A stretch of DNA of 64,000 nt. It comes from Fidelibacterota bacterium (GTDB taxonomy: Bacteria > Fidelibacterota > Marinisomatia > Marinisomatales > JABMOV01). Position 1 is the stretch's first letter, and each line of letters begins with the position of its first letter. The notes under the pieces were generated by a model, which did no database searches, was not told the origin of the DNA, and worked only from the letters and a program-made list of their open reading frames with translations. The stretch covers positions 18,317 through 82,316 of the forward strand of contig JBHHUC010000003.1 of NCBI GenBank assembly GCA_046861395.1, given 5' to 3'. Positions 18,292 to 51,286 of the stretch are shown here, one piece after another. The translations under genes were made by a program, and so were the position numbers.

Positions 18292-19335
18292 TTAAAGTTT
18301 GAATCCCAGAGATACGCGCTGGACGCCTTTCAGACGCTGAAAGTCGGTGTAGGAATAATCGATTTTTATCACGGTAGCCGATCCCCAGATCCGATAATTA
18401 ATGCCAAGACCATAGGACAATCCTTCTTCGGCAGTATCGCGGAACAGATTGGCATAACCTGTGCGGAGGAAGAACATATTGTTTAATGCCAATTCTACAC
18501 CGGCATTAACGGCTTCGGTATTATCATTGGGATGGATCGCGTCCAGGGCGAAACTCAAGCGGGTAACATCGGTATTAATCAATTCGCTGGACACGCCAAC
18601 ACGAAACATCAGCGGTAAGGGAAAGCGGTCCGTTTTATACCGTGCATCAACGTACTCTACTGTTCCCAGGTTGTCGGGATCGGGGTCGATGCTGATATCC
18701 AAGTCCCGCCCATCCAGTCTCATGCCGCCGCCATAGTTGGAAATACTGGCTCCCAGCCGGGTATCTCCAAACGGTGTGATAAAGAGTATTCCCAGATCAC
18801 CGGCCACAGTGGTGGCTTTCGAATGCCAGATATTTTCATGAATCATTTTTACCGTACCACCAAGCGAAAAATGATCAGTCAGCTTCCTGGCATATGTCAG
18901 ATTCAATGCCAACCCGCCGGCTTCCCAGTATTCGCCGGTACCTTCCGGATTTTCGACGGTTCGAACGATATCTCGGGGAACACTCAGACTGTTAACGGAG
19001 AGACCCAACACACCGAAACGTCCCGTATTAATGGTGGCGGCAGCAAAGTTCACATCCGTATTGACCAACCAGGCATTGTTGACTACGACCAGATGAAGTC
19101 CTTGCAGGCCGGCGATTCCAGCCGGATTCCAAAAGATTGAGCCAATATCACCGGACATGGCTACGAAGGCATTTCCCATTGATGATCCTCTTGCATCGGC
19201 TCCGATTTTCAGAAATGAAGCTGCCGTAGTCCCGGTCTTGGTAATGGTTTCCGTAATGGACTGAGCTTGAAGGCCGATCCAACATAATCCGATTAATAAT
19301 ATTGTTATTTTTATATTTTGTGTGAATTTCATCAT
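18292..19335 (-). CDS. PorV/PorQ-family outer-membrane beta-barrel (copy 1)
   Basis: Signal peptide; FLKIG.DAR..SMG.A..A....WNPAG N-terminal PorV/FadL-like motif; amphipathic strands ending DYSY..LGFKL. Confidence 0.85.
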   Translation of the reverse strand: MMKFTQNIKITILLIGLCWIGLQAQSITETITKTGTTAASFLKIGADARGSSMGNAFVAMSGDIGSIFWNPAGIAGLQGLHLVVVNNAWLVNTDVNFAAATINTGRFGVLGLSVNSLSVPRDIVRTVENPEGTGEYWEAGGLALNLTYARKLTDHFSLGGTVKMIHENIWHSKATTVAGDLGILFITPFGDTRLGASISNYGGGMRLDGRDLDISIDPDPDNLGTVEYVDARYKTDRFPLPLMFRVGVSSELINTDVTRLSFALDAIHPNDNTEAVNAGVELALNNMFFLRTGYANLFRDTAEEGLSYGLGINYRIWGSATVIKIDYSYTDFQRLKGVQRVSLGFKL

Positions 19336-22300
19336 TTTATCACCCCAAACCGTCCGATTTTTTCCCCCAATTCCCCGGCATCCACGTGATACAGGTAGAC
19401 ACCGTAGGCGATGGGGAAGTTATCTTTTGTCGTCAAATCCCAATATTCCTTGCCGTCATCTATGGCGGAATGATGTTCCAATGTTTCCACCAATTCTCCG
19501 CTCAGGGTATAAATTCTGATAGTACAATCCTCAGGCAAGTGATTGAAGTACAACCGGCGCTGCCCCCGGTCAATCCGGTTTTGCAAATCAGGTTTTTCAA
19601 TAACATTCGTCACGACATAGGGATTGGGAACGACGGAAATGTTATCCAGCTCCCTTCTTGCCTTACTGTTGTCCACAAAGGAGGCGGCCGTGGTAAATGT
19701 AAATTTATCTTCGGACGTAAACGGACGGGTGGTGGCAATGTAATACACATCACCAGCACCTGGCAGTATCGTATCACCAGAAGCAGGATAATTCATTGTG
19801 AATTCCCAGCTGGAGGTGGATGTTTCATCACCCTGAAGTATAATGACCCGTTCTCCGGGATTCCATAAACTGTCGGCCGACCCCAATTCCAAGACAATCA
19901 TTTTCCGTTTTTCAGGAACCATCCCCTCTGATACTTCCCATATTTCGAAATTGGTTTTAATATATCCCTGACTGGGTCGTGAACTACTGTCAACCAGGGT
20001 GTCAAAAAACCGTACTTCATAGTCTGCGGGATATTTTTTATTCTCCACATTATTAAAGGGTTTAACCGTGACCACCAGGTTGGCATCGCTGGTTGACGTC
20101 CATCCCATCCGGGATGTATCCAGGGCTAGGATTTCGTCATGTACGAAGATTTTCATTCCGTCAATCAATGGATTGGACTCTTCATTGTTCAACAAGGTGC
20201 TGGCATAAACGCCATAATATTGATATGTAGCATAATAGGTCCCCAAATGAGTCAATGTTGAATCACCCAGGATTTTCCCCGCTTCGGCATTCAGGGTATA
20301 GGCAGTATCTATATTGCCGTCAGCATCACGCAGGACAAAAGTGCTATCAACAATATGAGTATTGGGCAGCTGCACATACTGCCCATGACGAATGGTGACT
20401 TCCGTTTCAATCGGTTTCATATCACGGATGTAATATGCAGTTGGATTTTCAGTGAATGAGATTTCGAATTCATTATCATCCTCTATTTTTCGTGGATCGA
20501 CGATTTCCATGACAATGTCACCGGTTCCTACGCCGCCGGTATGCAGTATGGCATCATTTACGATGGATCCGGTTACGAATCCGGCAGCCGGTGAGCGTGA
20601 TGTCACTTTAACTGTATTCACATCAAACAGGGTCTCATTCCGTTCCGGATCCACAGTAATCCTTTTCGAGCATTCCACCGGAGCTATTTTCAGAGAATCA
20701 TCGCCATGGTCATACGAAACAACGGCATAATAATATTCCTGTCCGTTAATGACATTATTCGAATCCACGAATGTATGACGTATTCCGGTGTTATTCCCCA
20801 AATTGTAAAATACACCACGGCCGGTGTACGGTACGGTACTCAGTCCGGAATATTCATTGTCCAAATCGAACCTGGCCGGGGCACCGGTGGCCATCGTCAG
20901 CGGTTCAAACAAGAACCGGGAACCGTTGGCATCCGTAATGGTCTGTTGATCCAGAAACTGGGGATCTGTACTGCGATAAATCACGTATCCTTCGAAATCA
21001 TATTTCTCCGTCAGAGGATCCAGCGATGATTCCGCCACATCATCCCAATATAGCATGACTTTTTCATCTCCTGGAACGGCCACGACATTCGGTTTTTCCG
21101 GTGGTTTGGCAAATTCATAATTCCGTTCGTAAATCTCCTGCGCCGTCAGGGCATTCAGGGTCAAATCTTCGAAAGATTGTCCCACCAGCAAAGCAATGGA
21201 AAAGCGACGGGCTTCACCAGCCGGAAAATCAAATGGTCCGGAACTGTAAAGGAAAATATAATCCCCCGGAGTGTTGGAATTGGAAGTATCAAATTCCCCT
21301 GGGGTGAGAAAGTTGGTATAAAAATAATCATCATTGCGGGCGGCATTCTGAGCCAGGAAAGGCGGAGCCTTAAATCCGGTGAGTCCCACCATATCCGCTT
21401 CATCCAAATCGGTCCATTCAAAATTCGGTTCACCAGGAATTCTGATATCGAACGGATCGCCGGCCGTGGGCATACCGTCCCCTTCACCGGCATCTCCTGT
21501 ATTGGGCAGGCCGTCCAGCCCCACATCATCTTTATCTATATCCCAATCGCTATCGTTGTCAATTCCATCACTGCGACTTTCATCTATCATACCGTCATTG
21601 TCATTGTCAATGCCGTCATGTGGGTCACCGGGGCTTTCCAGAAATTTATACCCGAAATATCCGGGAGTTTTCCCGGCCACATCGCTCAGCCCGTCGGCAT
21701 CCCAAGCATAGACCATGTTGATATCACGGTCAAAAAATGATAGATCGTCGGCCCAGTCCGAAGGTCCTCCGATATGCGGGTCGCCCCACATCCCGAAGAT
21801 AACATTCTTGAGTTCTTTTTCACTTTTATTGGTCACCTTATAGATCAGAAATATAATGTCCTCTGCCAGAGGATTGGACCACTGGTAATAGCGACATTCA
21901 ATTTCCACGCCCAGACCCAGGCGGGATGAATCGGACGGAAAGGGATAATATTCAAATTCCCGGTTATTCCGGTCGTCAATGACGAAAAAGGCTTCCAGAT
22001 CGGCGTTTGATGACCCTTGGCGCAATGCTCCGGGCCATTGGTATTCCTGTAAATTCGGATTATACCACCCGGCCGGCCAGCTGTCCGGTTTTCCATCCCC
22101 GTCCCGGTCCACATCACCGGACGTGGGTAAATGATCGCTATTGGGATCCGCATAGGGAACACCGAGATCACTATGGGCCAACGGGTCCCAACCCCAGAAT
22201 TCGGTATTGTCGGGAGAAACTTCCGGATAAGATACAAGACCTTCACTGATTACCCTGGCAACCCAGACGGTATCGCCCTCAGCCGTGACAACAGGATTCC

Positions 22301-22739
22301 CATTTTCATCCAGTTTAATAAAGGCATCCTGATGGCTATGGGGTGCGACTTCGACCTCGGCAGCCACGATTGGTCCGAATTCATAGCCATAGCCCAGGCC
22401 TTCCCATACAATATCGGTGATTCGATTGCCGGGACTTGAAATGGAACCATAATTCCAGATTTCCGATGTAATCTTATTTCCGTTGATAATGGCCCATTGA
22501 CGACGAAGGGTTTGACTATCCTCCAGCGTTCTGCCCAATTTCAATGACAACTGTTCCAGCCAGGACATATATCGGTCATAATCCCGATCCGACCATTCTT
22601 TATTCACTCCCTGAGCATAATATTCCGGACTACCTTTGTGAATTCGTTTATTCTTCGCGCTGAGCGGCCCGGACATTATAGTCGCAATAAACCCGATCAG
22701 GACTAGAACGCAGATAATATTTACACTTTTTTTCATCAT
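19332..22739 (-). CDS. Large exported protein with acidic Ca-binding-like repeats, an FN3-like domain and a VVPNPY-type C-terminal domain
   Basis: Signal peptide; DGIDNDNDGMIDE repeats; PP..P...A.PGD..V.LYWD..FEGY.IYRS; C-terminal VVPNPY..F.HLP..CTIRIYT..GELV..GVY..FGVIK. Confidence 0.8.
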   Translation of the reverse strand: MMKKSVNIICVLVLIGFIATIMSGPLSAKNKRIHKGSPEYYAQGVNKEWSDRDYDRYMSWLEQLSLKLGRTLEDSQTLRRQWAIINGNKITSEIWNYGSISSPGNRITDIVWEGLGYGYEFGPIVAAEVEVAPHSHQDAFIKLDENGNPVVTAEGDTVWVARVISEGLVSYPEVSPDNTEFWGWDPLAHSDLGVPYADPNSDHLPTSGDVDRDGDGKPDSWPAGWYNPNLQEYQWPGALRQGSSNADLEAFFVIDDRNNREFEYYPFPSDSSRLGLGVEIECRYYQWSNPLAEDIIFLIYKVTNKSEKELKNVIFGMWGDPHIGGPSDWADDLSFFDRDINMVYAWDADGLSDVAGKTPGYFGYKFLESPGDPHDGIDNDNDGMIDESRSDGIDNDSDWDIDKDDVGLDGLPNTGDAGEGDGMPTAGDPFDIRIPGEPNFEWTDLDEADMVGLTGFKAPPFLAQNAARNDDYFYTNFLTPGEFDTSNSNTPGDYIFLYSSGPFDFPAGEARRFSIALLVGQSFEDLTLNALTAQEIYERNYEFAKPPEKPNVVAVPGDEKVMLYWDDVAESSLDPLTEKYDFEGYVIYRSTDPQFLDQQTITDANGSRFLFEPLTMATGAPARFDLDNEYSGLSTVPYTGRGVFYNLGNNTGIRHTFVDSNNVINGQEYYYAVVSYDHGDDSLKIAPVECSKRITVDPERNETLFDVNTVKVTSRSPAAGFVTGSIVNDAILHTGGVGTGDIVMEIVDPRKIEDDNEFEISFTENPTAYYIRDMKPIETEVTIRHGQYVQLPNTHIVDSTFVLRDADGNIDTAYTLNAEAGKILGDSTLTHLGTYYATYQYYGVYASTLLNNEESNPLIDGMKIFVHDEILALDTSRMGWTSTSDANLVVTVKPFNNVENKKYPADYEVRFFDTLVDSSSRPSQGYIKTNFEIWEVSEGMVPEKRKMIVLELGSADSLWNPGERVIILQGDETSTSSWEFTMNYPASGDTILPGAGDVYYIATTRPFTSEDKFTFTTAASFVDNSKARRELDNISVVPNPYVVTNVIEKPDLQNRIDRGQRRLYFNHLPEDCTIRIYTLSGELVETLEHHSAIDDGKEYWDLTTKDNFPIAYGVYLYHVDAGELGEKIGRFGVIK

Positions 22740-22757
22740 AAAATCTTTATCTCCAAT

Positions 22758-25538
22758 TTAAAAATTCATTGCAATGCCCAAGGTAACCAGGCGGGGAGAG
22801 CGATAGAAATTCGGTCTGGTCTGGTATTCTTTCCAGGTATGAATACCCGGCTCCCCATAATGGTTCTTGAAAGCATCGGTTTCCTGTTGGGACTGATTGA
22901 CAAAGGTATATCCGGCTCGACCCGTATCGTTAAACACGTAACGCTCATTGCGCCGGTCGAACAGATTATATATTTTGGCGAAGATGCTGTAGTGTATGCC
23001 AATTATCTTCAGTGATTTATTCATAAGCAGGTCAACGGATTGCTGCCAAGGTTTGCGGCCGCTATTTGGATCAGGGTTGATGTTCTGCAGTTCCGTATAT
23101 TTCGGATAATCCGGTGTATAGGGCCATCCGCTGGATAGTTTGGTAATTATGCTGACGCTCCAGTTATTCGGTTCACTGAACGTCGTAGTAGCATTAATAA
23201 TGTGGGACTGGTCCCAACTAAGCGGTACAATGTTTTTTTCTTCTTCTATCCCGGAAATCGCATTCAGGAAAAAGGACCCACTTTCCACTGCATTACCGTC
23301 CGTGACCTGATACGTGTAATCGAGAAAAGCTGAGAGTTTCGTCACGGGGTCCCGGGCTTTTGTGAGGCTGAAAGTAAATCCTTTTACTGTGCCATAATCC
23401 TTGTTCAGATAAATACTGTATGATTGGGGACCTGACGGGCCTTTGTATTTAATTGTCTGCGATGCCAATAAATCGCGAATATCCTTGTAAAAAATATTTG
23501 TTTCAATGGCCAGGGTCGGAGTGAGTTGCTGCTGCAAACCGAATTCATAGGTAACAGTTTTTTCCGGGTTCAGATCAGCATAGCCGAGCAGCGGTGATCC
23601 TGATACACCAATGATGGGTTCCCGGAAAAGATAGCGAAGCGTGGGCATTTGATAGAAATGGCCATAGGAAAAATGGAAGATACCCTGATCGGTAATGGGT
23701 AATGCCACCCCAATCCGCGGTGACCACATTTGTTTCGGTTTCGCTATTTTCCTTTCTCCGCTGGGATTCAAAAGATCCGCAATGTATTCCGCATTCGGAT
23801 CGAATGAATCATAGCGCAATCCAATGTTCATGATGAAGTTCTGATATTCCAGCTTATCCTGCACGTACCCGGAAATAAACTTGGCTGTCTTGTTATAATG
23901 GCTGTGGCTGGAGGTCGAATTTTCCGGAAGAATGGTCGGGATACGATACTTTACACCATCGAACAGGATTGTGAAAATGCGTTCATCCAATTCGTCGATC
24001 CGATAGCTCAAACCAGACTTCAATTCATGTCGGGGATTAATCTGACTGGTAATATCGAACTTTCCCCCCTTTGACAGGGAACTGCGGTAACTATGGGTAC
24101 GCTCCGTCCCACCGAAATTGAAAGTAGCTGAACTGGGTTGTCCAAATATCCTCAGTGATTCATAATAACCGTGGTTGTACAATTCATATTGTTCCCTACC
24201 CAAAGAATCAAGCGTCGCCACGATGTAGAATCCGGTACGATCCGGATCAACGCTGGAATATGCCTTATCAAGATCAATAGGGTCCGAGTAATAATGTTTG
24301 TAATCCGTGTTACCGGAAAATACATTTAATTCGTAAAAGGTTTTGGCACTGAGAGCGTGATTGAATTTCAGAGAATAATTATTGTTGTTTGATTCCTGAT
24401 CACCTACGCCGTCAGGATTGTATTTATAGCTGTGGATATAACTCTTGTAATTACTTCTCCCATGTAAATATTGTCCGGATATTTTAATCATGGGAGAAAT
24501 TTTATAGGTAAGCTTAAAGAGGATATCCGACCCTTGCGATGTATTCATGGGAACGATGCTGGAATCCCCGCCCATCTGATATTCATATTCACCGGAAATG
24601 GGGAAATAGGCCCAATCACCGGGCGTATGCTCCCGGACTCCATAATAATACCCCTGATTGTCCCGGTATTTTCCGGTCAGATTGAAGGTGATGCGGCGAC
24701 CTAAATTTATCACGGGAACAGGTCCATTCAACGTACCTTCAATAACATATCGGGCAGTGGGATTGACATCATCAATATTTAGATAAATATCCGTATCATT
24801 GGATATATAATCACCAGAATAGGCCGTCAGATTGCCATGATATTGTTTCCCACCTTCTTTGATCTGCAGGTTGACAACACCGCTCATGGCATTTCCGTAT
24901 TCGGCATTGAACGCCCCGCTGATAACTTTCATTTCTTCGAGAGCCTGGTTGGATACATTAATCGCCAGACTATTGGTAAAAAATGGATTGGAGACGGAAA
25001 CACCATCAATATAATACGCAACTTCATTATCGCGTCCACCACGGATATGCAAGGCACCATTGGCCCCCACATTCACGCCGGCCTGTGTTGTGAGTACCCC
25101 CAAGAAATTTTCCACGGGCATGGCCTTGATTTCTTCCGCCGTGGTTGTTTTTTGTGAAGCAGTCAAATCTTTCTGAATCATGGGGCGCTCCGCCACAACC
25201 GTTACTTCCTGGCCCTCCAGGACTTCAGGGGTCAGAGCAAAGTTTTGAATGGTTGTCTGATCCAGACTCACACGAATATCGGTTACTTTTATTGTGGTAT
25301 AACCGATATAGGTAGCTTTAACGTTATACGTCCCGGATGGTATGTTCAGAATGGTATAATTCCCATTTGCATCGGAGGCCGTTCCTACGGATAAATCTTC
25401 CACCAGGATATTTACACCGATTAGCGGATCATTCGTTTCAGCATCGATAACCCGGCCTGAAATCTTTCCTCCACCGGCATAACTCACGGTCATTCCCATA
25501 ACCAGCATTAAGAAGGGTAACCATTGTGTTTTTCTCAT
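22758..25538 (-). CDS. TonB-dependent receptor 1 (carboxypeptidase-regulatory-like N-domain, plug, barrel)
   Basis: GKISGRV.D..T..PL.GVNI; HIRGGR..E..YYIDG; GAFNAEYG..SGVVN; SYGHFYQ.P; L.PEKT..YE.G; C-terminal Phe. Confidence 0.93.
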   Translation of the reverse strand: MRKTQWLPFLMLVMGMTVSYAGGGKISGRVIDAETNDPLIGVNILVEDLSVGTASDANGNYTILNIPSGTYNVKATYIGYTTIKVTDIRVSLDQTTIQNFALTPEVLEGQEVTVVAERPMIQKDLTASQKTTTAEEIKAMPVENFLGVLTTQAGVNVGANGALHIRGGRDNEVAYYIDGVSVSNPFFTNSLAINVSNQALEEMKVISGAFNAEYGNAMSGVVNLQIKEGGKQYHGNLTAYSGDYISNDTDIYLNIDDVNPTARYVIEGTLNGPVPVINLGRRITFNLTGKYRDNQGYYYGVREHTPGDWAYFPISGEYEYQMGGDSSIVPMNTSQGSDILFKLTYKISPMIKISGQYLHGRSNYKSYIHSYKYNPDGVGDQESNNNNYSLKFNHALSAKTFYELNVFSGNTDYKHYYSDPIDLDKAYSSVDPDRTGFYIVATLDSLGREQYELYNHGYYESLRIFGQPSSATFNFGGTERTHSYRSSLSKGGKFDITSQINPRHELKSGLSYRIDELDERIFTILFDGVKYRIPTILPENSTSSHSHYNKTAKFISGYVQDKLEYQNFIMNIGLRYDSFDPNAEYIADLLNPSGERKIAKPKQMWSPRIGVALPITDQGIFHFSYGHFYQMPTLRYLFREPIIGVSGSPLLGYADLNPEKTVTYEFGLQQQLTPTLAIETNIFYKDIRDLLASQTIKYKGPSGPQSYSIYLNKDYGTVKGFTFSLTKARDPVTKLSAFLDYTYQVTDGNAVESGSFFLNAISGIEEEKNIVPLSWDQSHIINATTTFSEPNNWSVSIITKLSSGWPYTPDYPKYTELQNINPDPNSGRKPWQQSVDLLMNKSLKIIGIHYSIFAKIYNLFDRRNERYVFNDTGRAGYTFVNQSQQETDAFKNHYGEPGIHTWKEYQTRPNFYRSPRLVTLGIAMNF

Positions 25539-25669: not shown

Positions 25670-28600
25670 CTATTTCAACAGCAACATTTTCTGGGTCTTT
25701 TTGAAATGACCCCATTCCAGTGAATATATATAAGCCCCACTGGCAACGGGTGTATCATTCATGTTCAACCCATTCCACTGCACTAGGTGTCGACCGGCGG
25801 ACTGAAATTCGTTATCCACCAGTGTTTTCACCAACTGTCCCATCATATTATATATCTTGACCGAAACCTGTTTGTCGATCGGAATGATATATTCGATAGT
25901 GGTGGTAGGATTGAAAGGATTGGGATAGTTCTGCTTCAGCTGGTAATCATCCGGCGTAATAAAGGCGTACTGATCCACGCCCACCACGTCAGTTTCGTTT
26001 TCCAACAGTATGAATGCCCAAGCCTTGGAGTTTTCAACCTCCGTCACCGTTGTGTCCCATCCACTGCCGTTCCAGGTAATATTCGTCGTTGTAATCGTTG
26101 GAGACTGTCCCTGGAAACTCACTAGTAATTCATTGTGTCCATCACCATCAAAATCGATGGGAGAGTCATTGAATTCCGCCTGCACCTTGGAAGCAAAAGC
26201 ACCAGAGTGCGTTTGTGATGTGGTCAGGATTCCCGCCGAATCAACGACAGTAATGGATGTGAACACATCCGGTTCACCGGCATACAACACCGAGGATGTG
26301 TAGCTGAACGGGTCCCTGGGATCCGTTCCAGTGAAGGCCGTGTTTACGACCGTCTTCGGATAGGATGATCCTGTAAAGACCTGATTGACACCATCGCCAT
26401 CCACATCGAATACGGAGGCATAAAAGGCACCGACACTTTCGGCGATTTTCACAACATGGGTCCCGTCTATTGCCAACACATCGTCACCAGGATTGTAATC
26501 GACGACATACAGTTCGCTGGTATAATAATCCGGGAAGAAGGCTTCATCGTTGTCATCACCGTCGATGTCACCAGCACCACCACCGAACAGGGAAACATGA
26601 TCGTCGGGATAGGTGGCCTGATAATAATTGGTACCGGTGGCAGGATCTGCTGCCACGTAGGTGTCAGGACCAGTGGAGGTGACATTATAGAAGTTGAAAT
26701 AATTCCAAGTATGATTTACCAACTCATAATTACCATCACCATCCAGGTCTGCCGGTAAGGAATGATATGGTGATCCACCGCCGTAGTCATTTTTATTCAG
26801 GAAGAATTCGCTGACCCAGGTTTCGAAACCATTACCACCGGCATTGTGCTCAATGTCACCATTAACCGATGTAATCAACGTACCCCGGGTGCTTCCCCGA
26901 CGGATCATGCTGATCAATTCCTCTTTGCCGTCACCATCGATATCAAAGATAGTGGTTCTTTCATGATCACCACGGAAAGAGGCTCCATCTCCGGCGCAGC
27001 AGGTATCGATTTCCACCATATTCACGCTGGAATAGGTATCGCCATAGTTGTCGCTACCGGCAACACCGTCCCATTCAAAAACCCACCAGCCTTCAAGGTT
27101 GGTTGTGGCACGGGGAAATACAATTTCCTGTTTCCCGTCACCATCCAGATCGCCTACACCGACTGTGCGCGGGGTTGAAGAATAATGGGCATTGGTATCT
27201 GCCGGTGACATCCATACCTGTTCAAAGACCTGGTTCACATCATCGTATTCAAATACATATACACGGTGTTCGCTATAGGCCGTGGCAATCACCTCCTGAG
27301 CACCGTCCTGGTCCATGTCCATACCACCGATAACCGTACGCGGAGTTCCACTAACGTCATCAAAGAAGCTGGAATCAGCCGAAGTATGGTTGAAGGTCGC
27401 TCGTAAGGTCCAGCCATCCGCCAGGGATTGCGCGGTGGATGGGTCATATTCCAAAACAATAATTGCAGGCTGATCAACTTCAGTGGCTTTGATATTCGTT
27501 AATACCACTTCCCGCAATCCGTCACCATCCAGGTCAACGGGAGAAATTCGAGGCGGATAATACCGGTCGGCATTACCTCCGACACTTTCAAAGATGGTCG
27601 TCCATTCATAATTGGTCGAATCGGACGGATCACCAAAACCCAAATATTCCACCCGGGCTACCATTTCTTCCGTTCCGCGGGAGCAGACAAAATCTGTTTT
27701 CCCGTCATTGTCAATATCGCCCATGCTGGCACCACGGCTGCGTCCGCCGAAAGCACCGACCTGAACAAAATCAGCTCCGGTCAAATCGGCCACACTGCTG
27801 TCCACATTATCCAGATAATACAGAATACCATCTGTCATGGGAAACCAGCCCTCGAGGGCGCCATCACCATCGGCATCGGCAAAATACATGTCGTGACTGT
27901 TGAAAGATCCGGGATCATTGGCCGCCGGGAAAATTTGGTTCAAATCAACCTGTAAGGAGTATGTATCAGGTCCGGAAGCTTCAAAAATCGCCATGCTGAA
28001 CATATCCCAGGTATTGACCCAGATTTCTTTGAACCCATCGTCATCGAAATCCACGACTTCCACGTCATAGATACCACCGCCACCCAGATCTGTATCATTC
28101 AAAAATTCTTCATTGAATGAAGCGAATTCATCAAAGGTGCTGGTAGCCAAGGAATGTACCGTCATACGACGGGCACCACGGTCGATTGATACCAATTCAA
28201 TATCGCCGTCTCCATCAACATCGTCCAATACAAATCCCGCCGGACGGAAGTTGTCCGTAGCGGCGTAACCATATTGGAAGATTATAGTCGGGGTCGATGG
28301 GAATGCCCCGGATGCATCCTGTTCAAATATATGCGTACCCCAAGTTGCATCATTGCTTCCGACAGCCGGTGGAATGCCAAAATAGATTTCATACAATCCA
28401 TCCTGGTCGATATCACCATAGGCTAATCCGGGTAATGAATTACCGGGGTCGGGAGATGTATAGTGCCACACATGTTCATACGAATCGTTCCCATTGTTTT
28501 CGTACAGGTAAACTTCTACCTGTCCTGGGTCCGGTCCGCCGGGCGCTAAGGTTTCATCCATTGTGAACAAGATTTCACGATGACCGTCACGGTCAAAGTC

Positions 28601-32020: not shown

Positions 32021-32024
32021 AATA

Positions 32025-35458: not shown

Positions 35459-35504
35459 TAGATGGAAGTTAGCGGCGGAAGGGTGCCGTTGAATACAAAA
35501 GGGT

Positions 35505-35538
35505 AAAAAAAAGAGCCCGCAAAATAACGGGCTCTTTT
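35505..35538 (-). terminator. Rho-independent terminator downstream of 35558-37906
   Basis: Inverted repeat AAAAGAGCCCG (35509-35519) / CGGGCTCTTTT (35528-35538) with an 8-U tract on the minus strand. Confidence 0.85.
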
Positions 35539-35557
35539 AGATCCAACTGAGTTGGGA

Positions 35558-40152: not shown

Positions 40153-40155
40153 AAA

Positions 40156-43173: not shown

Positions 43174-43182
43174 TATAAAAGC

Positions 43183-44499
43183 CTAGTTCGTCCGACCGTA
43201 GTATGGTGCTCCCTGTTTGGTCATATCCACTCGGAATAGCCCTTTGTAATTCACGGGATTATAATCCCAGGAAGCACCATCGGGAACAGTGGCTGTATTT
43301 CGGCTGTTCACATAGAGGTAGTTATTGTTTCCCCAGGTAAGTTTGGTGGCCGGGGCTGGCAAGACTTCGGCATAGATCGGTTCCGGTGTGGCATCGGCAT
43401 ACGGAGGCGAAACCTTATACAGGGCCGGCCCCAGACTGGCCAGCGAAGATGGATCAATGTAATCCACGCCGACAATCAATGTACCGTCAAGTGCAAATGT
43501 TAAATCAAATGGTTTTGTAGCATCTGCTCCCAGAGCGGCTTCCCAATCCAACAACAATTCTACGGGACCCAACGAATCAGAGCTGACGATTGCTGTGCGA
43601 TAGATACCATAGAGCACAGCCGTGGTGTCCGACCCGATGTATTCTCCGATGACGTAAACATAATCTTCAAAAACACGAATGGCGTTTAAATGCACGTCGT
43701 CGGGAAATGTGACGGCACTGGTAAAGGATGATTCACCGGCTCCCAAATTGATCCGGTATAAGACATTCCGTCGGCCGCCGGCATACATATTTCCATATGA
43801 ATCGAAATCCAGATCATAGGCCCGTGTATTACTGGGGAGCCGTACGATATTGTTGGCGTCATTCCCTTCGTCAACCTCATAAATATTCTTATGTGACATG
43901 GCCAGAATCAGCGAACTGTTCGCCGCATAATAGCGCATTCCAATCGCTTTCTGTTTTGCCGAATGAGCCGCAAAGGTTACTGAATCCGCCTCTCCGTTGG
44001 GAAACACCCGCAGGATTTCCCTGTTTTCCGATTCGGAAACAAAAAGATTTTCGCTGTTATCGATGGCAATGGCCCAGAGGTTCGTACCCAACGGATCAAA
44101 CCCGCCCCAGGAAACAACGGCCGGAAATAGCTTATAGTTATCCCACTCCGCAAATTCATAGGCCCCGATGACGGAAATCTGAATTTTAACGCTGTCGGCC
44201 ACAAGGTTCGGCGCTTTGACGACTAATTCGGTGGCAGATAGGGACTGAATTTCGCCGGGATTCCCGTTGAAATAGATTTGGCAGCGATTGATATCGGAAC
44301 CAAAATTTTCTCCCGTTATCGTCAGGATTCCAATCCCGGCAAAGGCCGAATCCGCCGGAGCAATTGACGTGATAACCGGGTCGGGTAAAACGTCCGGATT
44401 ATCATTATATATTTTTTCCGGATAATTGGGACTCTCACAACTGAAGAGTCCAATGGTTATCAGTCCTAAAATCAACGTAAATCGTTTCATGATCAGCAT
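43183..44499 (-). CDS. IPT/TIG-domain lipoprotein with C-terminal beta-propeller
   Basis: LFSC lipobox; P.ITSI.P..A..G..LTITGENFG IPT motif; propeller-like repeats. Confidence 0.85.
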   Translation of the reverse strand: MLIMKRFTLILGLITIGLFSCESPNYPEKIYNDNPDVLPDPVITSIAPADSAFAGIGILTITGENFGSDINRCQIYFNGNPGEIQSLSATELVVKAPNLVADSVKIQISVIGAYEFAEWDNYKLFPAVVSWGGFDPLGTNLWAIAIDNSENLFVSESENREILRVFPNGEADSVTFAAHSAKQKAIGMRYYAANSSLILAMSHKNIYEVDEGNDANNIVRLPSNTRAYDLDFDSYGNMYAGGRRNVLYRINLGAGESSFTSAVTFPDDVHLNAIRVFEDYVYVIGEYIGSDTTAVLYGIYRTAIVSSDSLGPVELLLDWEAALGADATKPFDLTFALDGTLIVGVDYIDPSSLASLGPALYKVSPPYADATPEPIYAEVLPAPATKLTWGNNNYLYVNSRNTATVPDGASWDYNPVNYKGLFRVDMTKQGAPYYGRTN

Positions 44500-44510
44500 C
44501 CTTTTATCAC

Positions 44511-45530
44511 TTATAATGTGATCTGATAAGATAATTGATGGATATTATTAAAGACGCCGAAAGGCGTAAAGGCATAGTCGATGGAAATTCCCCGCTCCTT
44601 GCGGTTCAGTTGGATTCCAACGCCATAGGTCAATGAGCGTTCATCATAATTCCCGTAATACCCGGCCCGCAGGAATAAGACCGAAAGGGGATTGTATTCC
44701 ATGCCAATATTCAAACGTTCGGCATAGGACCGGGGATGTAGTGCGTCAATCGACAGCATAAAGCGAGCATCAGGATTGAGTGGGGTTTTTAACAGAGATA
44801 AGAATGAAAACTGGGCCAGATCAACGGAGCCGCCCAAGGCAAATGTCAGGGGCAACTGAAATCCTTCATTCTGATATTTGATTTCCTGCGAGAAATTCCT
44901 GACGGTCATACCGAAGGAAAAATCTTTCCAGCCCGTTTCATAGATGGTCCCGAAATCATAGGCCATAGTGGAAACCCAGTTCTTAATGGTTGTATTGGTG
45001 GAATCCGTTTCTGGGATGACACTACGTCCTAGATACTGGTAGGTTGATTTCACGTGACCACCGACAGAAAATTTATCGGATAACGCCTTGGCATACCCTA
45101 TGCCGACAGCCAAGGCCGTTGGTTGCATGATTTCGGTATCAATATAGCCGGCATCATTTTCCCAGACCATTGTTCCCTGAATCTTGCCATAGTCCACGGA
45201 TTGCGCACTGAAGGCAAATACACCGTATTTCCCTTGTGCCGGGACAATACTGACACTGGCCGTTATATAATTTATATCGGCAATGAATGAATTTTGGCTG
45301 AAGTTCGCTGACAGAAAATTCTTTGTTCGTGCCATCCCGGCCGGATTAAAGAATACCGAATTGGAATACCCCTTCATCGTGGTCATTGCCTCCGCCATGG
45401 CGGTAGCACGGGCATCAGAGGCGACACTCAAGAACTGAAACCCAGTTTGAGCCAGCTTTATGTCCCCGGATATGGCCAGCGTAGATAATAAACTCATTGC
45501 AGCGATTGTTTTTATGAATGATGCCTTCAT
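44511..45530 (-). CDS. PorV/PorQ-family outer-membrane beta-barrel (copy 2)
   Basis: KLAQTG.QFL....DARA.AM.EA......FNPAG motif; DYAFTPFG.F near the C-terminus. Confidence 0.85.
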   Translation of the reverse strand: MKASFIKTIAAMSLLSTLAISGDIKLAQTGFQFLSVASDARATAMAEAMTTMKGYSNSVFFNPAGMARTKNFLSANFSQNSFIADINYITASVSIVPAQGKYGVFAFSAQSVDYGKIQGTMVWENDAGYIDTEIMQPTALAVGIGYAKALSDKFSVGGHVKSTYQYLGRSVIPETDSTNTTIKNWVSTMAYDFGTIYETGWKDFSFGMTVRNFSQEIKYQNEGFQLPLTFALGGSVDLAQFSFLSLLKTPLNPDARFMLSIDALHPRSYAERLNIGMEYNPLSVLFLRAGYYGNYDERSLTYGVGIQLNRKERGISIDYAFTPFGVFNNIHQLSYQITL

Positions 45531-45533
45531 CGC

Positions 45534-46070
45534 TTATTCCTTATTTAACACGATCATTTTAAACCCGCGTCCTTCCTCCATTGCCAACCGAACCAAGAAT
45601 TGTCCGGCTGTCAATACATATTCCTTCCGCCCGACAATTTCATTGCAGGCAGCAATTGTTTCCAGGTCCAACGTAACCGGTTCATATTGCTGTTCTGTAC
45701 CGGATGCATCATACACCGTTACATTGACGTTCAGATTAGTATAGAGAATAACTGTTCCATTGCTTTCCTGGGATAGGACTACAAAGGTTGTATCATCCGT
45801 TTTACCGATCTTCCACAAAGAATCCGGATTAACCGTCACGACGGCCCCCAGAGATAACAGAGAATCAATTTTCCCGGATGCATCAGCTACTGAATCCGGA
45901 ATCCAATGAGATGAAACCTGATTAAATAATGTATCTGTCTCAAATATCTGACAGGCCTGTTCATCAATGGCGTTAATGGTAAATGTTTCATCGGAATAAT
46001 TATCACAGCCCAACCACAACAAACTCATTGCGGCAAATGAAATCAATTTATTCATGGTTTCTTCCCTCAT
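45534..46070 (-). CDS. Small hypothetical lipoprotein
   Basis: WLGC lipobox after MNKL (alternative start 46055); tightly packed in the operon. Confidence 0.72.
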   Translation of the reverse strand: MREETMNKLISFAAMSLLWLGCDNYSDETFTINAIDEQACQIFETDTLFNQVSSHWIPDSVADASGKIDSLLSLGAVVTVNPDSLWKIGKTDDTTFVVLSQESNGTVILYTNLNVNVTVYDASGTEQQYEPVTLDLETIAACNEIVGRKEYVLTAGQFLVRLAMEEGRGFKMIVLNKE

Positions 46071-48112
46071 CGGATAATGATGAATTTCTTTATGATGGAT
46101 TCTCCCGCTTTCACTGATATCCCCGTTTTCCAGTCGATATAATCATCCAATACCTCAAAATGAGCAATATACATGCCGCTGACAACGACCTGCCGGGAAC
46201 TGGTAATGGAATTCCAGACTTCATCACCACTGCCATCCAAGTGGTCGATGGAATAAATCAAATCACCACGTTCGGTAAAAATACGGATTTTGCAGGTCGG
46301 TGGAATATCCAGGAACATGATCCGGTCGGAACCGGCATCGGTGCCATATTGAAGCTCCCGCGCCCGGATATTATAGGGATTCGGCACAACCCTAATTCGA
46401 TCCAGTGTTCCGGGCTGCCTTTTCAGAAAGGCCGGTTGATTGGTCCGGGTATAAAATAAACTGCTCTCCATGGGAACTCCGGGATGGATATCATTCGTGG
46501 AACCGTCATCAACGGTCGTGATGTAGTAGAAATAATCGAATCCACGAATGGCGGAATGATCTTCATAGCGCGTTTCCCCCACCGGCAGCTCCGCTAGCAA
46601 CGTGTAGGTCGTATCAAAAACCTGAACGGCCCGGTAAATCCTGTATCCCGTAAGATTGGGCCAGGATTCCGCCGTATTGGACCATTCCAGGATGATCCTG
46701 TCTCCGCCCGATGTTACCGTAAACTGGTCCGGGGGCGGTGGTTCATGGGGAATGGACAAACCATTATCCCAGGTATTCTGTGCGCGGGTAAAAGCCTGGA
46801 ACAGGGAATCCTTCCCTGACATGACCAGCGTATTCTTTTGATCATTACTTACAACACCCGACAACCAATCGGCACCGATTTCAATGGCATGTTTCCGTGA
46901 CAGACCGGCAACTGCTTCCACGGTAACAACTGTCAGACTATCGCCCGGTGCCATGGTATAGGGACCGTACCCCCGGCCAATGGAATATCCGCCACCGGTT
47001 TGGCCGTATTGATCAGCAAACCCGGTTCCCACTTCTTCGGCATGGCTGGCTGCCGGATGACCACTGCTCATGAGGGCATATTCATCAGACATTTTTGCAG
47101 CATTGAAATGGTCGTTGCCGGAATTGTAGGGACCATCCGAATCGGGAAACGGTGTAGATGTGGGTTGCATGGGGTCATTGGAATGATCATCCGGTGATTT
47201 ATCAGCATGGATTGTCATTACTCCGGCAAATTGCGCCGCTCCCAGACGACCGTTACCGTTAAAGTACGGAGCACCGATATTGTCCCCCGGTCCACCAAAA
47301 CCGGAGTGTAAACCATGCCAGGCATAGGAGACCCGGAAAGGATTATCGGGATCACCGGCGGAATAGTTGCCATATTCGCCCAGAACTTCATTCATCGTAT
47401 TACGTCCCCAGGTGGCATTTTGCGGCATCCAGAAATATCCGTAAGAACATGCTTCCTTTGTCATGGCATAGCGTTCCTGCCAAAACATGTACACATCGTT
47501 CAATGTGACGGATTGCTTATTTCCATTTACATCGTAAATCCCCGTATTCTTAAACGTATAGGTTACAATATAGTAATTATCATGATTCGGTTGACTGTAA
47601 CCGTAGATCTTACGCGTCACCGTGATCCCCAGGCTGGTATTGGTCGAATTAATGATTAAACGGTCACTGGGAATTGTTTCATCCACTTCATCCACCAGAT
47701 CGGTAAAGTCCAGCTCCGAGGCTGGCAAACCATCCACCAGCACGACCGGACGGGGATAACGGGCAATCAGTCGAAAATCCGTCGGCATGAATTCCGCCAG
47801 TTCATTCATCACCCGGGGGCCGACATGGACGACTTTCGCCGGGTAAGTTTGTCCCGTAATGGGATCGGCATAATTCGTGGCACCGATCCAGAATGCCTTG
47901 GCTGCTTTTACATCCTGATAACGGAATTGAGCCGGCCACTGCAGGCCATCCTGCTGGTCGGGAATCAGATGGCGACGGCCGACTTCAATTTCACAGCCAC
48001 CGCTACTGAACCAATCATGAAGCTGACCAACCGATATCCATCGAACCTCGTCGCCCCATCCGGAGGATGAGACAAGCAATACAACGATGATCCATGATAA
48101 TGTTTTACGCAT
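46067..48112 (-). CDS. Exported FN3-containing protein with VVPNPY-type C-terminal domain (TBDR3 partner)
   Basis: Signal peptide; SGGDRI.LEW..GYRIYRA; AFLKRQPG.LDRIRVVPNPY..KKFIIIR. Confidence 0.82.
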   Translation of the reverse strand: MRKTLSWIIVVLLVSSSGWGDEVRWISVGQLHDWFSSGGCEIEVGRRHLIPDQQDGLQWPAQFRYQDVKAAKAFWIGATNYADPITGQTYPAKVVHVGPRVMNELAEFMPTDFRLIARYPRPVVLVDGLPASELDFTDLVDEVDETIPSDRLIINSTNTSLGITVTRKIYGYSQPNHDNYYIVTYTFKNTGIYDVNGNKQSVTLNDVYMFWQERYAMTKEACSYGYFWMPQNATWGRNTMNEVLGEYGNYSAGDPDNPFRVSYAWHGLHSGFGGPGDNIGAPYFNGNGRLGAAQFAGVMTIHADKSPDDHSNDPMQPTSTPFPDSDGPYNSGNDHFNAAKMSDEYALMSSGHPAASHAEEVGTGFADQYGQTGGGYSIGRGYGPYTMAPGDSLTVVTVEAVAGLSRKHAIEIGADWLSGVVSNDQKNTLVMSGKDSLFQAFTRAQNTWDNGLSIPHEPPPPDQFTVTSGGDRIILEWSNTAESWPNLTGYRIYRAVQVFDTTYTLLAELPVGETRYEDHSAIRGFDYFYYITTVDDGSTNDIHPGVPMESSLFYTRTNQPAFLKRQPGTLDRIRVVPNPYNIRARELQYGTDAGSDRIMFLDIPPTCKIRIFTERGDLIYSIDHLDGSGDEVWNSITSSRQVVVSGMYIAHFEVLDDYIDWKTGISVKAGESIIKKFIIIR

Positions 48113-48124
48113 ACAAAACCTTCT

Positions 48125-51100
48125 TTAGAAGTTGTAAGTGATATTGAGACCAAAGAATACGTCCCGGGGGTTCAGGAAAGTAAAATAGGTCTGATTGGGC
48201 ATATCGATATACGCCTTGTCATCCAGGACCCGTTTCAGGAATGATGTTTCCGTCTCCTGCCAGCCGGCTCCAGTATATTGATAATATATTTCATCCGCCT
48301 GGTTGAAATAAATGGCCCGTGTGTTTGGATTCTGCACATTCGTGAGAGAAACCACCGATTCAATGGGAACAAATTCAACACCATCCCGACGATAATCTCC
48401 CGGCTGATCGTTACCGGGAATATTTCCATACAGCAGCTTTTCCCCTACACTCTTGGGCAAGTGTAAAGATTGCATATAATCATCAAAATCATAACCATCG
48501 GCAAACGATTCACCAGAAAACCGCTTGAGATTCAATACATTGAATATATCGGCAAAGACTTTGACGGAAAATTGCTTGAAGGCAAAAATCTTTGACACTT
48601 TTAAGTCGAAATTATAATAATCTTTCCACTGTACATTAAACTGAATACCCCGTATCCGGTTGGGATTATACGTGAACCAGGATCCGCTGGTCCAACGCCC
48701 AATAATATTAAAGTGCCATCCGCCCAGAGGATAGACCGTACCCAATGCAGGACCAAATTTCTTGGGTGAAAATATATCCACATATCCCTTGGCCCGCGGT
48801 GTCGGCAATGGTTTGGACTGATAGCGGTTTGTCTTTTCATATTCCGTTTGTTCGGCCGGATTCTGGAATTGTTTACCAATATCAAAATAGCCGGAAGTGG
48901 AAACACGGTATTCATAATTCACCATTCCAGTATACCAGTTTCCAAAGCGTTTGGACATTTCGATTTCAAAACCGCGAATGTCTTCATACAGGTTATTGGT
49001 CATGATATAGGAATTAATCTTACCGTCCGAACTGATAATCTGTGTCCAATCCTGTTCATTGGTTACGTCCTTATAATAGGCCGAAATACGCAGTAAATAC
49101 ATGTTTGCGATGGCACGGTCAAAACCCAATTCATAGGAAATCGTATTGGCCGGATCAATACTGGGATCTCCCAGGTACCGAATGGCACCCACACTATTCC
49201 TTTGTATTCTGTACAATGCTTCGGCCGTTGCCGATTGGTTATAATGACCGTAATTAAAATAGAGTTTTGATACATCAGTAATGGGATGGGAAAAGGCCAG
49301 CCGCGGATTGAGCACTTTAACAGCCTTAGCATTTTTCGCGAATTTTGAGTCCCAGATTCCATCTTGGTCGTAATAAAAGAAATCCTTATCAAAGGTATCA
49401 AAGGAAAACCACTTTCCATTGGGATCGTAATATTCTCCGCTCAGCCCCAGAATGGCAACCAGACCCTTGAATTCTATTTTATCCTGGATGTATGCATTAA
49501 AGCGATAGGGGTTAGTACTGAATTCAGCCCAAGTATTTCCTTCCGGCAAGACTTTATTAATGGAACCGAACTGCATATTTATATCATAGGAAATATATTC
49601 AAACCCGGTCTTCAGCTGATGATTGGTGGAATATTGCGTAGTATAGTTTCCCGATAAAGAGAAGGAAGATACTACGGTAGAATCCCGGGCCGTTGAAATG
49701 GGGCCGCCAAGCGTGAGGCCACCATCCACGCTGGACATGAATTCATCCATGAAACCAAAGGGTTGTTCATCCACCTGATACCCAGGGAATATTTCAAAAA
49801 GTTTTTCTGTGTTTCTACGTCGTCCAGGACCTGTCAGATAACGATTCTCGGTGGTCTGCCACCGTAATTCATAAAACGTAGTCGGTGATAATACGTGGGA
49901 AAAAGACAGGGAGTACGTCCGGTTTTCCCGTGTTGTTTCAGAAAAATAATCATTGGTGAAAATACGCCAGGGGATGGTAAATCCGGTTCGGTCCACAATA
50001 CCGGCTACACCGGCCACAGAATAGAAATACGATGTGCCGCCCGCCCGGGAAGCATTGGTGGCTGTCATACCATTCCATAAAGTGGAAGCTGACAATTTCA
50101 TATTTTTTGCTAAATCAGAAGTTATCTTCAGCACATTGCCATAGGTATTTCTACCATCCGTTGCCAGGGGGAATAAATACATGTTCTGTTCTTCTATCCG
50201 CGAATAATAAAATCGTAGATTTCCCAACTTTTCGCTGATAAAGGGAACGGGGCCACCAAAACCCAGATCAATGGTATAATCAGGATCACGGATCACACCG
50301 TCTTTTCGATGCTGCCATTCGAACAAACGCTTTGCCGCCGTTGGTGTCAGATCATTGCTTGGATCATCATCGCTCAATGTTGCTGCCGCTATAGCAACCC
50401 ACCCGTCAAAAGGTGCATACTGTCGCCGGTCATATTCATCCCACGGACCGTTTTCCGTACCGTACCAGGCCGTGCTGTCCCATAAAAACGGCTTCAACCA
50501 GTAAGATTCGGACTGAAAAACAGGATCACCGAAATGTTTGGCCGCCGGGGGGCTGTACTTGGTAGTAATCGTGGCCGAATATTTCTGGGGATCGCCTTCT
50601 TTCGAAACCACATTGATGATTCCGCCACGTACATTATTGTATTCTGCATTAAATCCGCCGGTTTGGACCGAAACCTCCTGGATGGAACTGAGGGGTATGC
50701 CGGTAATAGGCGCATCATTGCGACTATCCCGTAAAGTGACACCATCAATCATCAGCATGGTCTGGTCTGATCCGCTGCCCCGAATACCCAGAGTGGATGT
50801 AATGCCGGCCTTCAATCCCACGATTTCCCCTAACGTAGTAACGGGCAATGATTCAATTTCATCATTGGTAACACTCAATTGGCTGGCGGCAACATCTGCT
50901 TTGACCACCTTGTGTTCGGCAATGACTTCAACACTTTCGCCCTCCAGGACTTCCACAGGGAGAACGACATCAACAATGGTCGTCAAATCTATTTCAACCC
51001 TTACTTGCCGAACCGTGGTTTTCTTGAATCCAATCATGGAAACAACCAAATCATATTCGCCGGGAGGAACATTCAGGATTGTATAATGGCCATCCACATC

Positions 51101-51286
51101 TGATGATGTTCCTAGATAGGTGCCGGAAATCAGAATATTGGCTCCCGCTAATAGAGCACCATCGGCCTCAGCCGTTACGGTACCAGTGATTTTCCCTGTT
51201 GTCCCGGCAAATAGAATATTTACAAAAAGAAGTGATAAAAGCAGGGGAAGAATGTGTTGTTGTAGTTTTCTCATCACCAAATCCAT
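48125..51286 (-). CDS. TonB-dependent receptor 3
   Basis: AGTTGKITG, IRG, GGFNAEY.NVRGG.IN, QDKIEF, FNYGH, YELGF motifs; C-terminal Phe. Confidence 0.93.
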   Translation of the reverse strand: MDLVMRKLQQHILPLLLSLLFVNILFAGTTGKITGTVTAEADGALLAGANILISGTYLGTSSDVDGHYTILNVPPGEYDLVVSMIGFKKTTVRQVRVEIDLTTIVDVVLPVEVLEGESVEVIAEHKVVKADVAASQLSVTNDEIESLPVTTLGEIVGLKAGITSTLGIRGSGSDQTMLMIDGVTLRDSRNDAPITGIPLSSIQEVSVQTGGFNAEYNNVRGGIINVVSKEGDPQKYSATITTKYSPPAAKHFGDPVFQSESYWLKPFLWDSTAWYGTENGPWDEYDRRQYAPFDGWVAIAAATLSDDDPSNDLTPTAAKRLFEWQHRKDGVIRDPDYTIDLGFGGPVPFISEKLGNLRFYYSRIEEQNMYLFPLATDGRNTYGNVLKITSDLAKNMKLSASTLWNGMTATNASRAGGTSYFYSVAGVAGIVDRTGFTIPWRIFTNDYFSETTRENRTYSLSFSHVLSPTTFYELRWQTTENRYLTGPGRRRNTEKLFEIFPGYQVDEQPFGFMDEFMSSVDGGLTLGGPISTARDSTVVSSFSLSGNYTTQYSTNHQLKTGFEYISYDINMQFGSINKVLPEGNTWAEFSTNPYRFNAYIQDKIEFKGLVAILGLSGEYYDPNGKWFSFDTFDKDFFYYDQDGIWDSKFAKNAKAVKVLNPRLAFSHPITDVSKLYFNYGHYNQSATAEALYRIQRNSVGAIRYLGDPSIDPANTISYELGFDRAIANMYLLRISAYYKDVTNEQDWTQIISSDGKINSYIMTNNLYEDIRGFEIEMSKRFGNWYTGMVNYEYRVSTSGYFDIGKQFQNPAEQTEYEKTNRYQSKPLPTPRAKGYVDIFSPKKFGPALGTVYPLGGWHFNIIGRWTSGSWFTYNPNRIRGIQFNVQWKDYYNFDLKVSKIFAFKQFSVKVFADIFNVLNLKRFSGESFADGYDFDDYMQSLHLPKSVGEKLLYGNIPGNDQPGDYRRDGVEFVPIESVVSLTNVQNPNTRAIYFNQADEIYYQYTGAGWQETETSFLKRVLDDKAYIDMPNQTYFTFLNPRDVFFGLNITYNF

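Follow-up and report, generated by a model that had tools for sequence, protein, structure and literature searches.

The window analyzed here is a stretch of 64,000 nucleotides from a Fidelibacterota bacterium (assembly GCA_046861395.1, contig JBHHUC010000003.1, positions 18,317 to 82,316 of the forward strand), the genome of which comprises 2.37 Mb and is 94% complete. It hosts three modules in which the gene of a TonB-dependent transporter (TBDT) stands directly ahead of the gene of a large exported protein, hereafter called the partner, that ends in a C-terminal domain (CTD) with the motif VVPNPY, accompanied by genes for outer-membrane barrels of the PorV/PorQ family. An original prediction, made from the sequence alone, had proposed this arrangement as an alternative to SusC/SusD. 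All feature coordinates named therein coincide with open reading frames of the minus strand, and genes are referred to below by their lower coordinate.

Operon 1 runs in the order FG-GAP protein, TBDT, partner, barrel, anmK, and a nagB-like gene, with intergenic gaps of 131, 18, -4, 36, and 36 bp. The TBDT of module 1 (22758..25538, minus strand as all module genes, 926 aa) belongs to a non-SusC subfamily and comprises a CarboxypepD-like N-terminal extension, plug, and barrel (PF13715/PF07715). Its partner (19332..22739, 1135 aa) combines a signal peptide, a beta-supersandwich with an insert of acidic repeats, fibronectin type III (FnIII)-like and further beta domains, and the VVPNPY CTD; the stop of its gene overlaps the start of the cognate barrel gene (18292..19335, 347 aa). 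Operon 2 begins with a GH3/beta-lactamase fusion, an AmiA-like protein, and a symporter, followed by module 3 with its TBDT (48125..51286, 1053 aa, CarboxypepD-like domain and plug) and partner (46067..48112, 681 aa, supersandwich, linker helices, FnIII, and VVPNPY CTD). Downstream lie a small probable lipoprotein (45534..46070, 178 aa, lipobox-like Cys, no Pfam family), a second barrel (44511..45530, 339 aa), and a probable lipoprotein with an IPT/TIG domain (43183..44499, 438 aa, PF01833). Module 2 closes the operon with a close paralogue of TBDT 48125 (40156..43173, 1005 aa, CarboxypepD-like domain and plug) and its partner (38020..40152, 710 aa, signal peptide and VVPNPY CTD), the module genes being spaced by -4 to 12 bp. 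Partners 2 and 3 share 33% identity outside and 57% within the CTD.

As predicted, each of the three TBDT genes is directly followed by a gene for a large signal-peptide protein, at distances of 18 bp (22758/19332), 3 bp (40156/38020), and 12 bp (48125/46067). The postulate that each TBDT operon carries its own PorV-like gene held in so far as 18292 and 44511 scored 194.7 and 174.7 bits on the PorV/PorQ family model NF033709 (cut-off 90), but only two barrels serve three modules: partner 38020 has no adjacent barrel gene and possibly shares 44511. The region 37814-48400 was evenly covered by contigs of three runs from one sample, possibly the source sample and used as an assembly check only.

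The CTDs of the three partners share the predicted domain and measure 108-115 aa (in 19332 the last 108 aa, covarying with the 18292 barrel family). A hidden Markov model (HMM) built from these tails recovered 10 proteins of the genome at 52-203 bits, followed by an ordinary type A protein at 23 bits. On TIGR04183/PF18962, the type A model with a cut-off of 23 bits, the window tails scored 14.9 bits or were not listed, and one of eight genome tails was marginal with 23.4 bits; TIGR04183 passes at 60 places in the genome, one of which belongs, marginally, to the VVPNPY class. On the type B model TIGR04131 the tails scored ≤14 bits (cut-off 35). The comparison proposed earlier, an HMM of the three CTDs against both models, hence gave a clear score gap, with the window tails reaching neither cut-off. 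The YPNPFN-type tails that had been assigned to five other window proteins were found as described (5836, 25670, 30557, 32025, and 35558).

In a tree of 61 genome tails, calculated from 93 columns with rough support values and without two contig-cut VVPNPY tails, the eight complete VVPNPY tails form one clade (98/86). Its sister, on a long branch, is the tail of the PorZ-like protein of the same genome. Among tails from other genomes, 5/54 match TIGR04183 at E<=1e-4 and 10/54 match the PorZ model, and of the solved structures, PorZ (5M11; E 0.003-0.004, a weak match) and PorU have the CTDs nearest in sequence. These two CTDs are uncleaved and stay on PorQ and PorV, according to PMC10947112, PMC11285876, and PMC12365241. 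The exact VVPNPY motif occurs in 309 of 347 unique tails, and models and alignments display structural features of type A domains, namely a C-terminal Ig-like beta-sandwich, the PNP motif, a conserved Gly in the beta3-beta4 loop, and a near-terminal basic residue. Thus, the claim of a separate CTD class stands with respect to the single clade and the scores below both cut-offs, but the tail and type A CTDs are homologous. Ordinary type A diversity is ruled out by the HMM gap and the separate clade. Identity with the type B/PorP system is likewise rejected, based on the TIGR04131 scores and the lack of any PorP/SprF protein over the TIGR03519 cut-off in the genome, which also contains no type B tail. 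As modelled, the module falls outside the type A and type B CTD classes.

The barrels can be assigned to a known family as well. The profile of the 18292 family matched the PorV structure 6H3I with an E-value of 4e-23, while both barrels remained below the PorQ equivalog cut-off of 220 (65.5 and 73.1 bits) and far below the PorV equivalog. Within the own genome, where neighbors were labelled by profiles built on its own genes, 8/9 VVPNPY genes with known upstream DNA sit directly after a TBDT of the window subfamily and 5/8 directly precede a PorV-family gene; for a control of 59 type A genes these values were 0/50 and 2/55. The tail is present in all 41 Fidelibacterota genomes sampled (1-22 copies), in 57 of the 101 genomes of a second sample centred on the phylum of Melioribacter, and on named contigs of Calditrichota, Rhodothermia, Ignavibacteria, and KSB1, with up to 26 module copies per genome.

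Four sets of loci were evaluated for gene order. Positions directly after a TBDT and directly before a barrel were found in 65/72 and 50/74 cases (60 regions from 150 of 371 matches), 66/72 and 76/83 (best 80 of 558 loci), 91/105 and 93/107 (100 further regions), and 49/54 and 74/80 (best 80 of 319 metagenome loci). Pooled, this amounts to 271/303 and 293/344, counts that derive from best-scoring loci without de-duplication, so that kin are not independent. The predicted linkage to TBDT and PorV-family genes therefore extends across several phyla, and the linkage counts together with the even contig coverage rule out an artefact or chance adjacency. Exceptions in gene order comprise a barrel gene ahead of the partner and several partners per TBDT (L070, L290, and L306).

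The pairing of tails and barrels was examined with 316 tail-barrel pairs (262 effective), for which mean-field covariation was compared to four re-paired nulls. The top inter-protein z values were 16.9, 12.8, 11.8, and 11.3, compared with null peaks of 6.4-8.2. Across 30 pairs of sequence segments of the three proteins in 242 triads, barrel x CTD alone stood out (16.6, 14.9, and 12.1), and with 256 triads this signal held in two alphabets, one of five nulls having reached 10.5. Tail residues 1035 and 1067 couple mutually and with barrel loop 122-131, and the pairs R1130/P120 and I1128/V91 map to the equivalents of PorV F115-G116 and of its N87 loop. Covariation also joins tail Y1112 to barrel L207, S1035 to R125, H1067 to E131, and K1105 to T301. 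In the translocon structure, as described in PMC10994853, the F115 and N87 loops of PorV bind the conserved CTD lysine, to which tail R1130 would correspond by its position.

A swap test was performed in which the genome and its close homologues were held out and, on the basis of the 15 strongest column pairs, each tail had to choose among the barrels of its own genome. The adjacent barrel was chosen in 130 of 167 cases in 54 genomes, compared with 54.7 expected by chance and 58 for random columns. When applied to TBDT segments, the test yielded 46, 67, and 62 of 145 (chance 49) versus 118/145 for barrels. Within the window, 46067 picked 44511, its top-scoring barrel. The predicted cognate PorV paralogs are thus borne out by covariation above the nulls and by the swap choices, and a new CTD class with cognate barrels can be regarded as highly probable. 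Two outcomes had been named in advance as speaking against the proposal, i.e., VVPNPY domains within type A diversity and free of linkage to TBDT and PorV genes, or the lack of a cognate-specific interface; the analyses found neither.

All three partners possess signal peptides and match no Pfam family. The AlphaFold2 (AF2) model of mature 46067 (127 sequences) reached a predicted local distance difference test (pLDDT) score of 92.9 and consists of a beta-supersandwich at the N-terminus followed by linker helices, a single FnIII domain, and the tail. Its best VIA matches were the N-domains of glycoside hydrolases (GH) of families GH94, GH116, and GH15 (Z 18, root-mean-square deviation (rmsd) 3.0-3.8 Å, 8-10% identity), and mutarotase-like proteins followed with Z 12-14. 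For 19332 (AF2 model, pLDDT 89.2), Foldseek matched the GH94 N-domain and PorZ. The catalytic (alpha/alpha)6 barrel is lacking in both models, and judging from the fold the partner may bind substrate. When the two partner families were compared profile against profile, the tail alone was reported; homology of their N-domains rests on fold matches and transitive BLAST. A lipobox-like start occurs in 6/205 full partners, and database names of homologues read hypothetical or "fibronectin". Searches of the ESM Atlas returned only hypothetical-protein clusters for the partner and only generic TBDT clusters for the receptor. Residues ~370-450 of 19332 form acidic DxDxDG repeats inserted in the supersandwich, with Asp and Gly invariant in 92 homologues; this sequence pattern is probably a calcium-binding insert.

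In Bacteroidia, SusD acts as a lid on the SusC transporter. On the SusC/RagA model TIGR04056 (cut-off 368) the window TBDTs scored 79 (22758) and 56 bits and the third was not listed, placing them outside this family; nine TBDTs of the genome form one subfamily, with at least 193 bits to the window TBDTs and 105 for the next protein. No close relative of a window TBDT was found among solved structures. The predicted lack of a SusD homolog was confirmed, as no SusD family was detected among the 29 window proteins scanned and PF07980, the one SusD model searched genome-wide (other SusD-like Pfam families being searched in window proteins), is absent from the 94% complete genome. The two probable lipoproteins of operon 2, 45534 and 43183, are neither of them SusD. 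In the Fidelibacterota sample, SusD_RagB was found in 7/41 genomes, one each. In the second sample, at least eight SusD matches occurred in 15 genomes, none of which has a VVPNPY tail (hand count; lineage confounds). Strict mutual exclusion of the module and SusD was rejected, given that both are present in 30/57 genomes.

Regarding export, the sprA gene that was to be looked for elsewhere in the genome was found (765 bits), and SprA occurs in 41/41 Fidelibacterota genomes. A PorU sortase over its cut-off (618 bits) as well as separate PorZ-like and PorQ-like genes are also encoded, together with two TonB genes. Conversely, the porKLMN motor named alongside sprA was not detected: GldM and GldL were each found in 0/41 genomes and GldN was not found in the own genome, the GldL and GldN searches having had no positive control. 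In the second sample, GldM was matched in 25/101 genomes, 6 of them among the 57 tail-bearing ones with 1-3 weak matches. The combination of SprA, PorU, and ~60 type A cargo proteins with no recognizable GldL, GldM, GldN, or PorP/SprF in the Fidelibacterota sample is an observation in its own right.

The module is real, widespread, and built from known parts. A distinct tail class, its gene linkage, cognate tail-barrel covariation, the partner fold, and substrate-specific neighborhoods were established computationally, and we consider a three-gene outer-membrane uptake module the best explanation of the whole, with a probability of roughly 0.62. The partner would be exported by Sec and then through the SprA (type IX) translocon, whereupon the PorV/PorQ-family barrel of the neighboring gene, and not the general PorV, would receive it. 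This barrel would bind the VVPNPY tail with the geometry known from PorV and its CTDs, and the tail would be kept uncleaved at the surface, by analogy to PorQ keeping PorZ. The supersandwich would then capture substrate at the surface for the co-transcribed TBDT, taking the role that SusD and surface glycan-binding lipoproteins play in Bacteroidia, and each paralogous module would have its own substrate. That the module serves uptake, the partner being its capture protein at the surface, appears probable. [quoted passage not shown]

Several results weigh against the uptake module. TBDT x partner covariation remained within the null in all 24 segment pairs (242 triads; ~200 effective sequences), and 19 held-out TBDT x partner tests gave 36-73/128 (chance 45, control 98); given this scatter, the best of them, partner 301-545 x TBDT 115-330 (73/128), was not accepted. 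Low power for large variable loops means that this null neither shows nor excludes a lid, and one model of the whole module lost power. TBDT-barrel covariation peaked at z 8.1 and 6.4 versus null maxima of 5.3-8.4. In the own genome, the cognate barrel was chosen in only 3-4 of 6 cases; partner 19332 gave its own barrel a score of 2.4 and a different one 2.6, and 38020 did not select 44511. Mirror-tree analysis of 121 triads found all parts co-inherited (r 0.80-0.88) and was not discriminating; its partial correlation was higher for CTD-TBDT (0.41) than for CTD-barrel (0.22). A shared fold by itself gives no function, and 30/57 tail-bearing genomes of the second sample also hold 1-6 SusD genes (hand count). 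Finally, no GldL/GldM motor was found that would account for the exit of cargo from SprA. A post hoc cluster at periplasmic turns (barrel 156/157/183 with TBDT 613/617/621) is recorded as a lead only.

Among the alternatives, the one surviving best assumes the same secretion and anchoring for a partner acting at the surface as an enzyme (hydrolase, lyase, or mutarotase-like) or as an adhesin, co-regulated with the TBDT and never touching it. The missing TBDT-partner covariation would be expected then, stand-alone enzymes such as the mutarotase-like matches are found among supersandwich folds, many polar and aromatic partner residues are invariant, and some loci encode several partners per TBDT. 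Still, neither model contains an (alpha/alpha)6 catalytic barrel, the gene order is near-invariant and one-to-one, and one and the same partner family is found with loci for starch, for beta-glucan, and for peptidoglycan, a spread more in keeping with a binding scaffold than with a single chemistry. We rate this alternative as unlikely. Much less plausible is a barrel acting as a transient dedicated shuttle, after which PorU would cleave the tail and the partner be released or linked to lipopolysaccharide like type A cargo. A PorU over cut-off, a PorZ-like protein, and the type A-like fold of the tail fit such a route, against which stand the uncleaved PorZ/PorU tails as closest relatives and the strong pair-specific covariation suiting a lasting contact; moreover, only cargo that is retained is known to have a barrel of its own (PMC10947112, PMC12618676).

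The missing motor bears on a further alternative, in which the TBDT is part of secretion and lets TonB-ExbBD detach the barrel-partner complex from SprA in lineages lacking GldLM, similar to PorF. The GldL and GldM counts and the two TonB genes would agree with this, as would the energy requirement of SprA release and the influence of PorF, a predicted TBDT-like protein, on Porphyromonas gingivalis secretion, as stated in PMC10994853 and PMC12704123, respectively. However, ~59 type A cargo proteins without such a TBDT must leave SprA anyway, and the neighbors are catabolic and transport genes tracking the subfamily, making this reading quite improbable. Hardly credible is a periplasmic partner that binds barrel or TBDT from inside with an ordinary Ig-like domain as tail, since, for all the lack of a recognizable motor and a surface location that is itself a prediction, the covarying barrel residues lie in long loops equivalent to the extracellular CTD-binding loops of PorV and SprA is universal in the phylum sample.

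Comparing the proposed uptake module with known systems, the PorZ-PorQ and PorU-PorV pairs of the P. gingivalis T9SS attachment complex are alike in that the cargo has a long CTD resembling type A, held by a PorV-family barrel dedicated to it. They differ in the passenger, which here is a supersandwich/FnIII protein and not a double propeller or sortase, in barrel scores far below the PorQ/PorV equivalog cut-offs, in the multiplication of the module up to 26 times per genome, and in its tie to TBDT genes; moreover, the genome has separate PorU, PorZ-like, and PorQ-like genes. Type B CTDs with PorP/SprF in Flavobacterium johnsoniae (PMC12618676) are similar with regard to the barrel gene directly downstream of the cargo and to pair specificity with some cross-talk; in contrast, the VVPNPY tail is not TIGR04131 and its barrel is of the PorV/PorQ family. 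The type B/PorP precedent invoked by the original prediction was consequently dropped in favor of PorZ-PorQ, which fits better.

SusC/SusD (RagA/RagB) shares with the module a TBDT with N-terminal extension followed by the partner gene, multiplication per substrate, and a setting among carbohydrate-active enzymes, regulators, and inner-membrane transporters. Unlike there, the TBDT is not SusC, the partner is a larger all-beta non-lipoprotein and not a tetratricopeptide repeat lipoprotein, a third gene and the T9SS are required, and lid contact is a supposition. The N-terminal beta-supersandwich (galactose mutarotase-like) of GH94/GH15/GH65/GH116 superimposes with Z 16-18 and rmsd 3.0-4.0 Å over 238-280 residues; the partner is only 8-12% identical, with FnIII domains and CTD replacing the helical catalytic barrel. 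Taken together, the module would work like PorZ-PorQ in anchoring and probably resembles SusC/SusD in uptake, being a member of neither. Full-text search, with subscription papers mostly outside its coverage, found no published description of the TBDT-partner-barrel triad.

The genes surrounding the modules allow a view on possible substrates. Frequent neighbors in 320 loci, with 40/45 cluster representatives scanned, were parvulin, sugar ABC transporters, LacI regulators, GH13, CBM20, GH16, GH94, GH130, GH18, amidases, and NamZ, and these genes track the partner subfamily. Among 50 loci close to 19332, 34 carry amidase/NamZ/VanX/DacB-like genes and 2 carry the other glycan markers. In the 32 loci grouped around another paralogue, glycan markers, mainly for starch, are present in 29, and the peptidoglycan genes just named in none. 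In operon 1, anmK and the nagB-like gene (14749..18255, minus strand; PF03702 278 bits, NagB-like NF002557) lie 36 bp downstream of the barrel gene of module 1 and represent amino-sugar salvage. Judged by these clade neighbors and by the presence of anmK and nagB in operon 1, the most likely imports of module 1 are peptidoglycan fragments, which would feed AnmK/NagB. Modules 2 and 3 stand among amidase, GH3, GHL10, and SpoIID genes, with only 6 close loci each, and probably take up peptidoglycan fragments too. The cultured member of the Fidelibacterota lives on exogenous muropeptides, as reported in PMC11652737.

In terms of relevance, the module offers a concrete answer to how polymers are taken up by abundant lineages of the Fibrobacterota-Chlorobiota-Bacteroidota (FCB) group having few or no SusD genes, i.e., Fidelibacterota/SAR406, Calditrichota, Ignavibacteria, Rhodothermia, and KSB1. 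It can serve as a marker for utilization loci missed by SusC/SusD-based tools, defines a CTD class that current models leave unannotated, and names candidate muropeptide outer-membrane importers for a phylum whose cultured member depends on muropeptides. The data also bring to light a SprA translocon without a recognizable GldLM motor. Since natural tail-barrel pairs number in the hundreds and contact residues can be named, cargo discrimination by T9SS carriers, an open question in PMC12618676, becomes testable by swaps. If the three-protein importer is real, uptake independent of SusC/SusD in the FCB lineages outside Bacteroidia would mainly run through it; it may predate SusC/SusD, would persist even in streamlined genomes of 1 Mb, and would here form the outer-membrane entry route for scavenged peptidoglycan.

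Further features of the window complete the picture. Upstream of TBDT 22758 lies the FG-GAP repeat protein with an ordinary type A CTD (25670..28783, minus strand, family profiles), having a homologue in 31/50 loci of the 19332 partner clade. The sodium:solute symporter, AmiA-like amidase, and GH3/beta-lactamase-fold fusion upstream of TBDT 48125 (Pfam) span 51394..57054 on the minus strand. Between both operons, 28960..37906 encodes, by family profiles, type A CTD cargo and helpers, namely a GHL10 hydrolase, Amidase_3, a TolB-like propeller, and an NHL/SGL propeller protein. A gene of similar size to 45534 occupies the same position in related loci; the IPT lipoprotein 43183 is conserved in the operon 2 cassette and has homologues in 7/320 related loci.

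Side observations were made on several of these genes. The product of 14749-17076 (775 aa) is NagB fused to a PIG-L-like deacetylase domain and adjoins anmK and SpmA/B-like Gate proteins. The overlapping reading frames at 28960-32020 are a single gene for GHL10, Ig, and type A CTD, with an intact homologue of 1039 aa in the related locus L054; as contigs of three runs have 20 additional bases at 30562, the frameshift is an assembly error. Propeller protein 35558-37906 contains a perfect internal duplication of 963 nt (321 aa), likely recent and true in view of the doubled read depth on the repeat and relatives of ~440 aa with one copy. Parvulin-type peptidyl-prolyl isomerases (PPIases) are the commonest module neighbors (73/320 loci, e.g., L377:1444-2862), reminiscent of the PPIase that is bound to SprA.

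At least 14 PorV-family matches are present in the genome. Other cargo-barrel pairs occur as well: in L005:11877-15243, beside sprA, two PorV/PorQ-like genes come after the gene of a propeller protein, and in L394:3161-8742 a PorQ-like gene comes after that of a PorU2-like protein. One subfamily of VVPNPY-class proteins of 720-780 aa has no upstream TBDT (L006:2073-4232, G000 C84; L091, L101, L102) and lies in a conserved run of type A protein, lipoprotein, TBDT, and PorV-like barrel, near sprA in the own genome. In another, the tail is extended by a short aromatic-ended peptide (L009:7316-10561, G000 C11; L397, L398, L399); it is the only module kept in small genomes, one of them of 1.1 Mb, and may do something essential.

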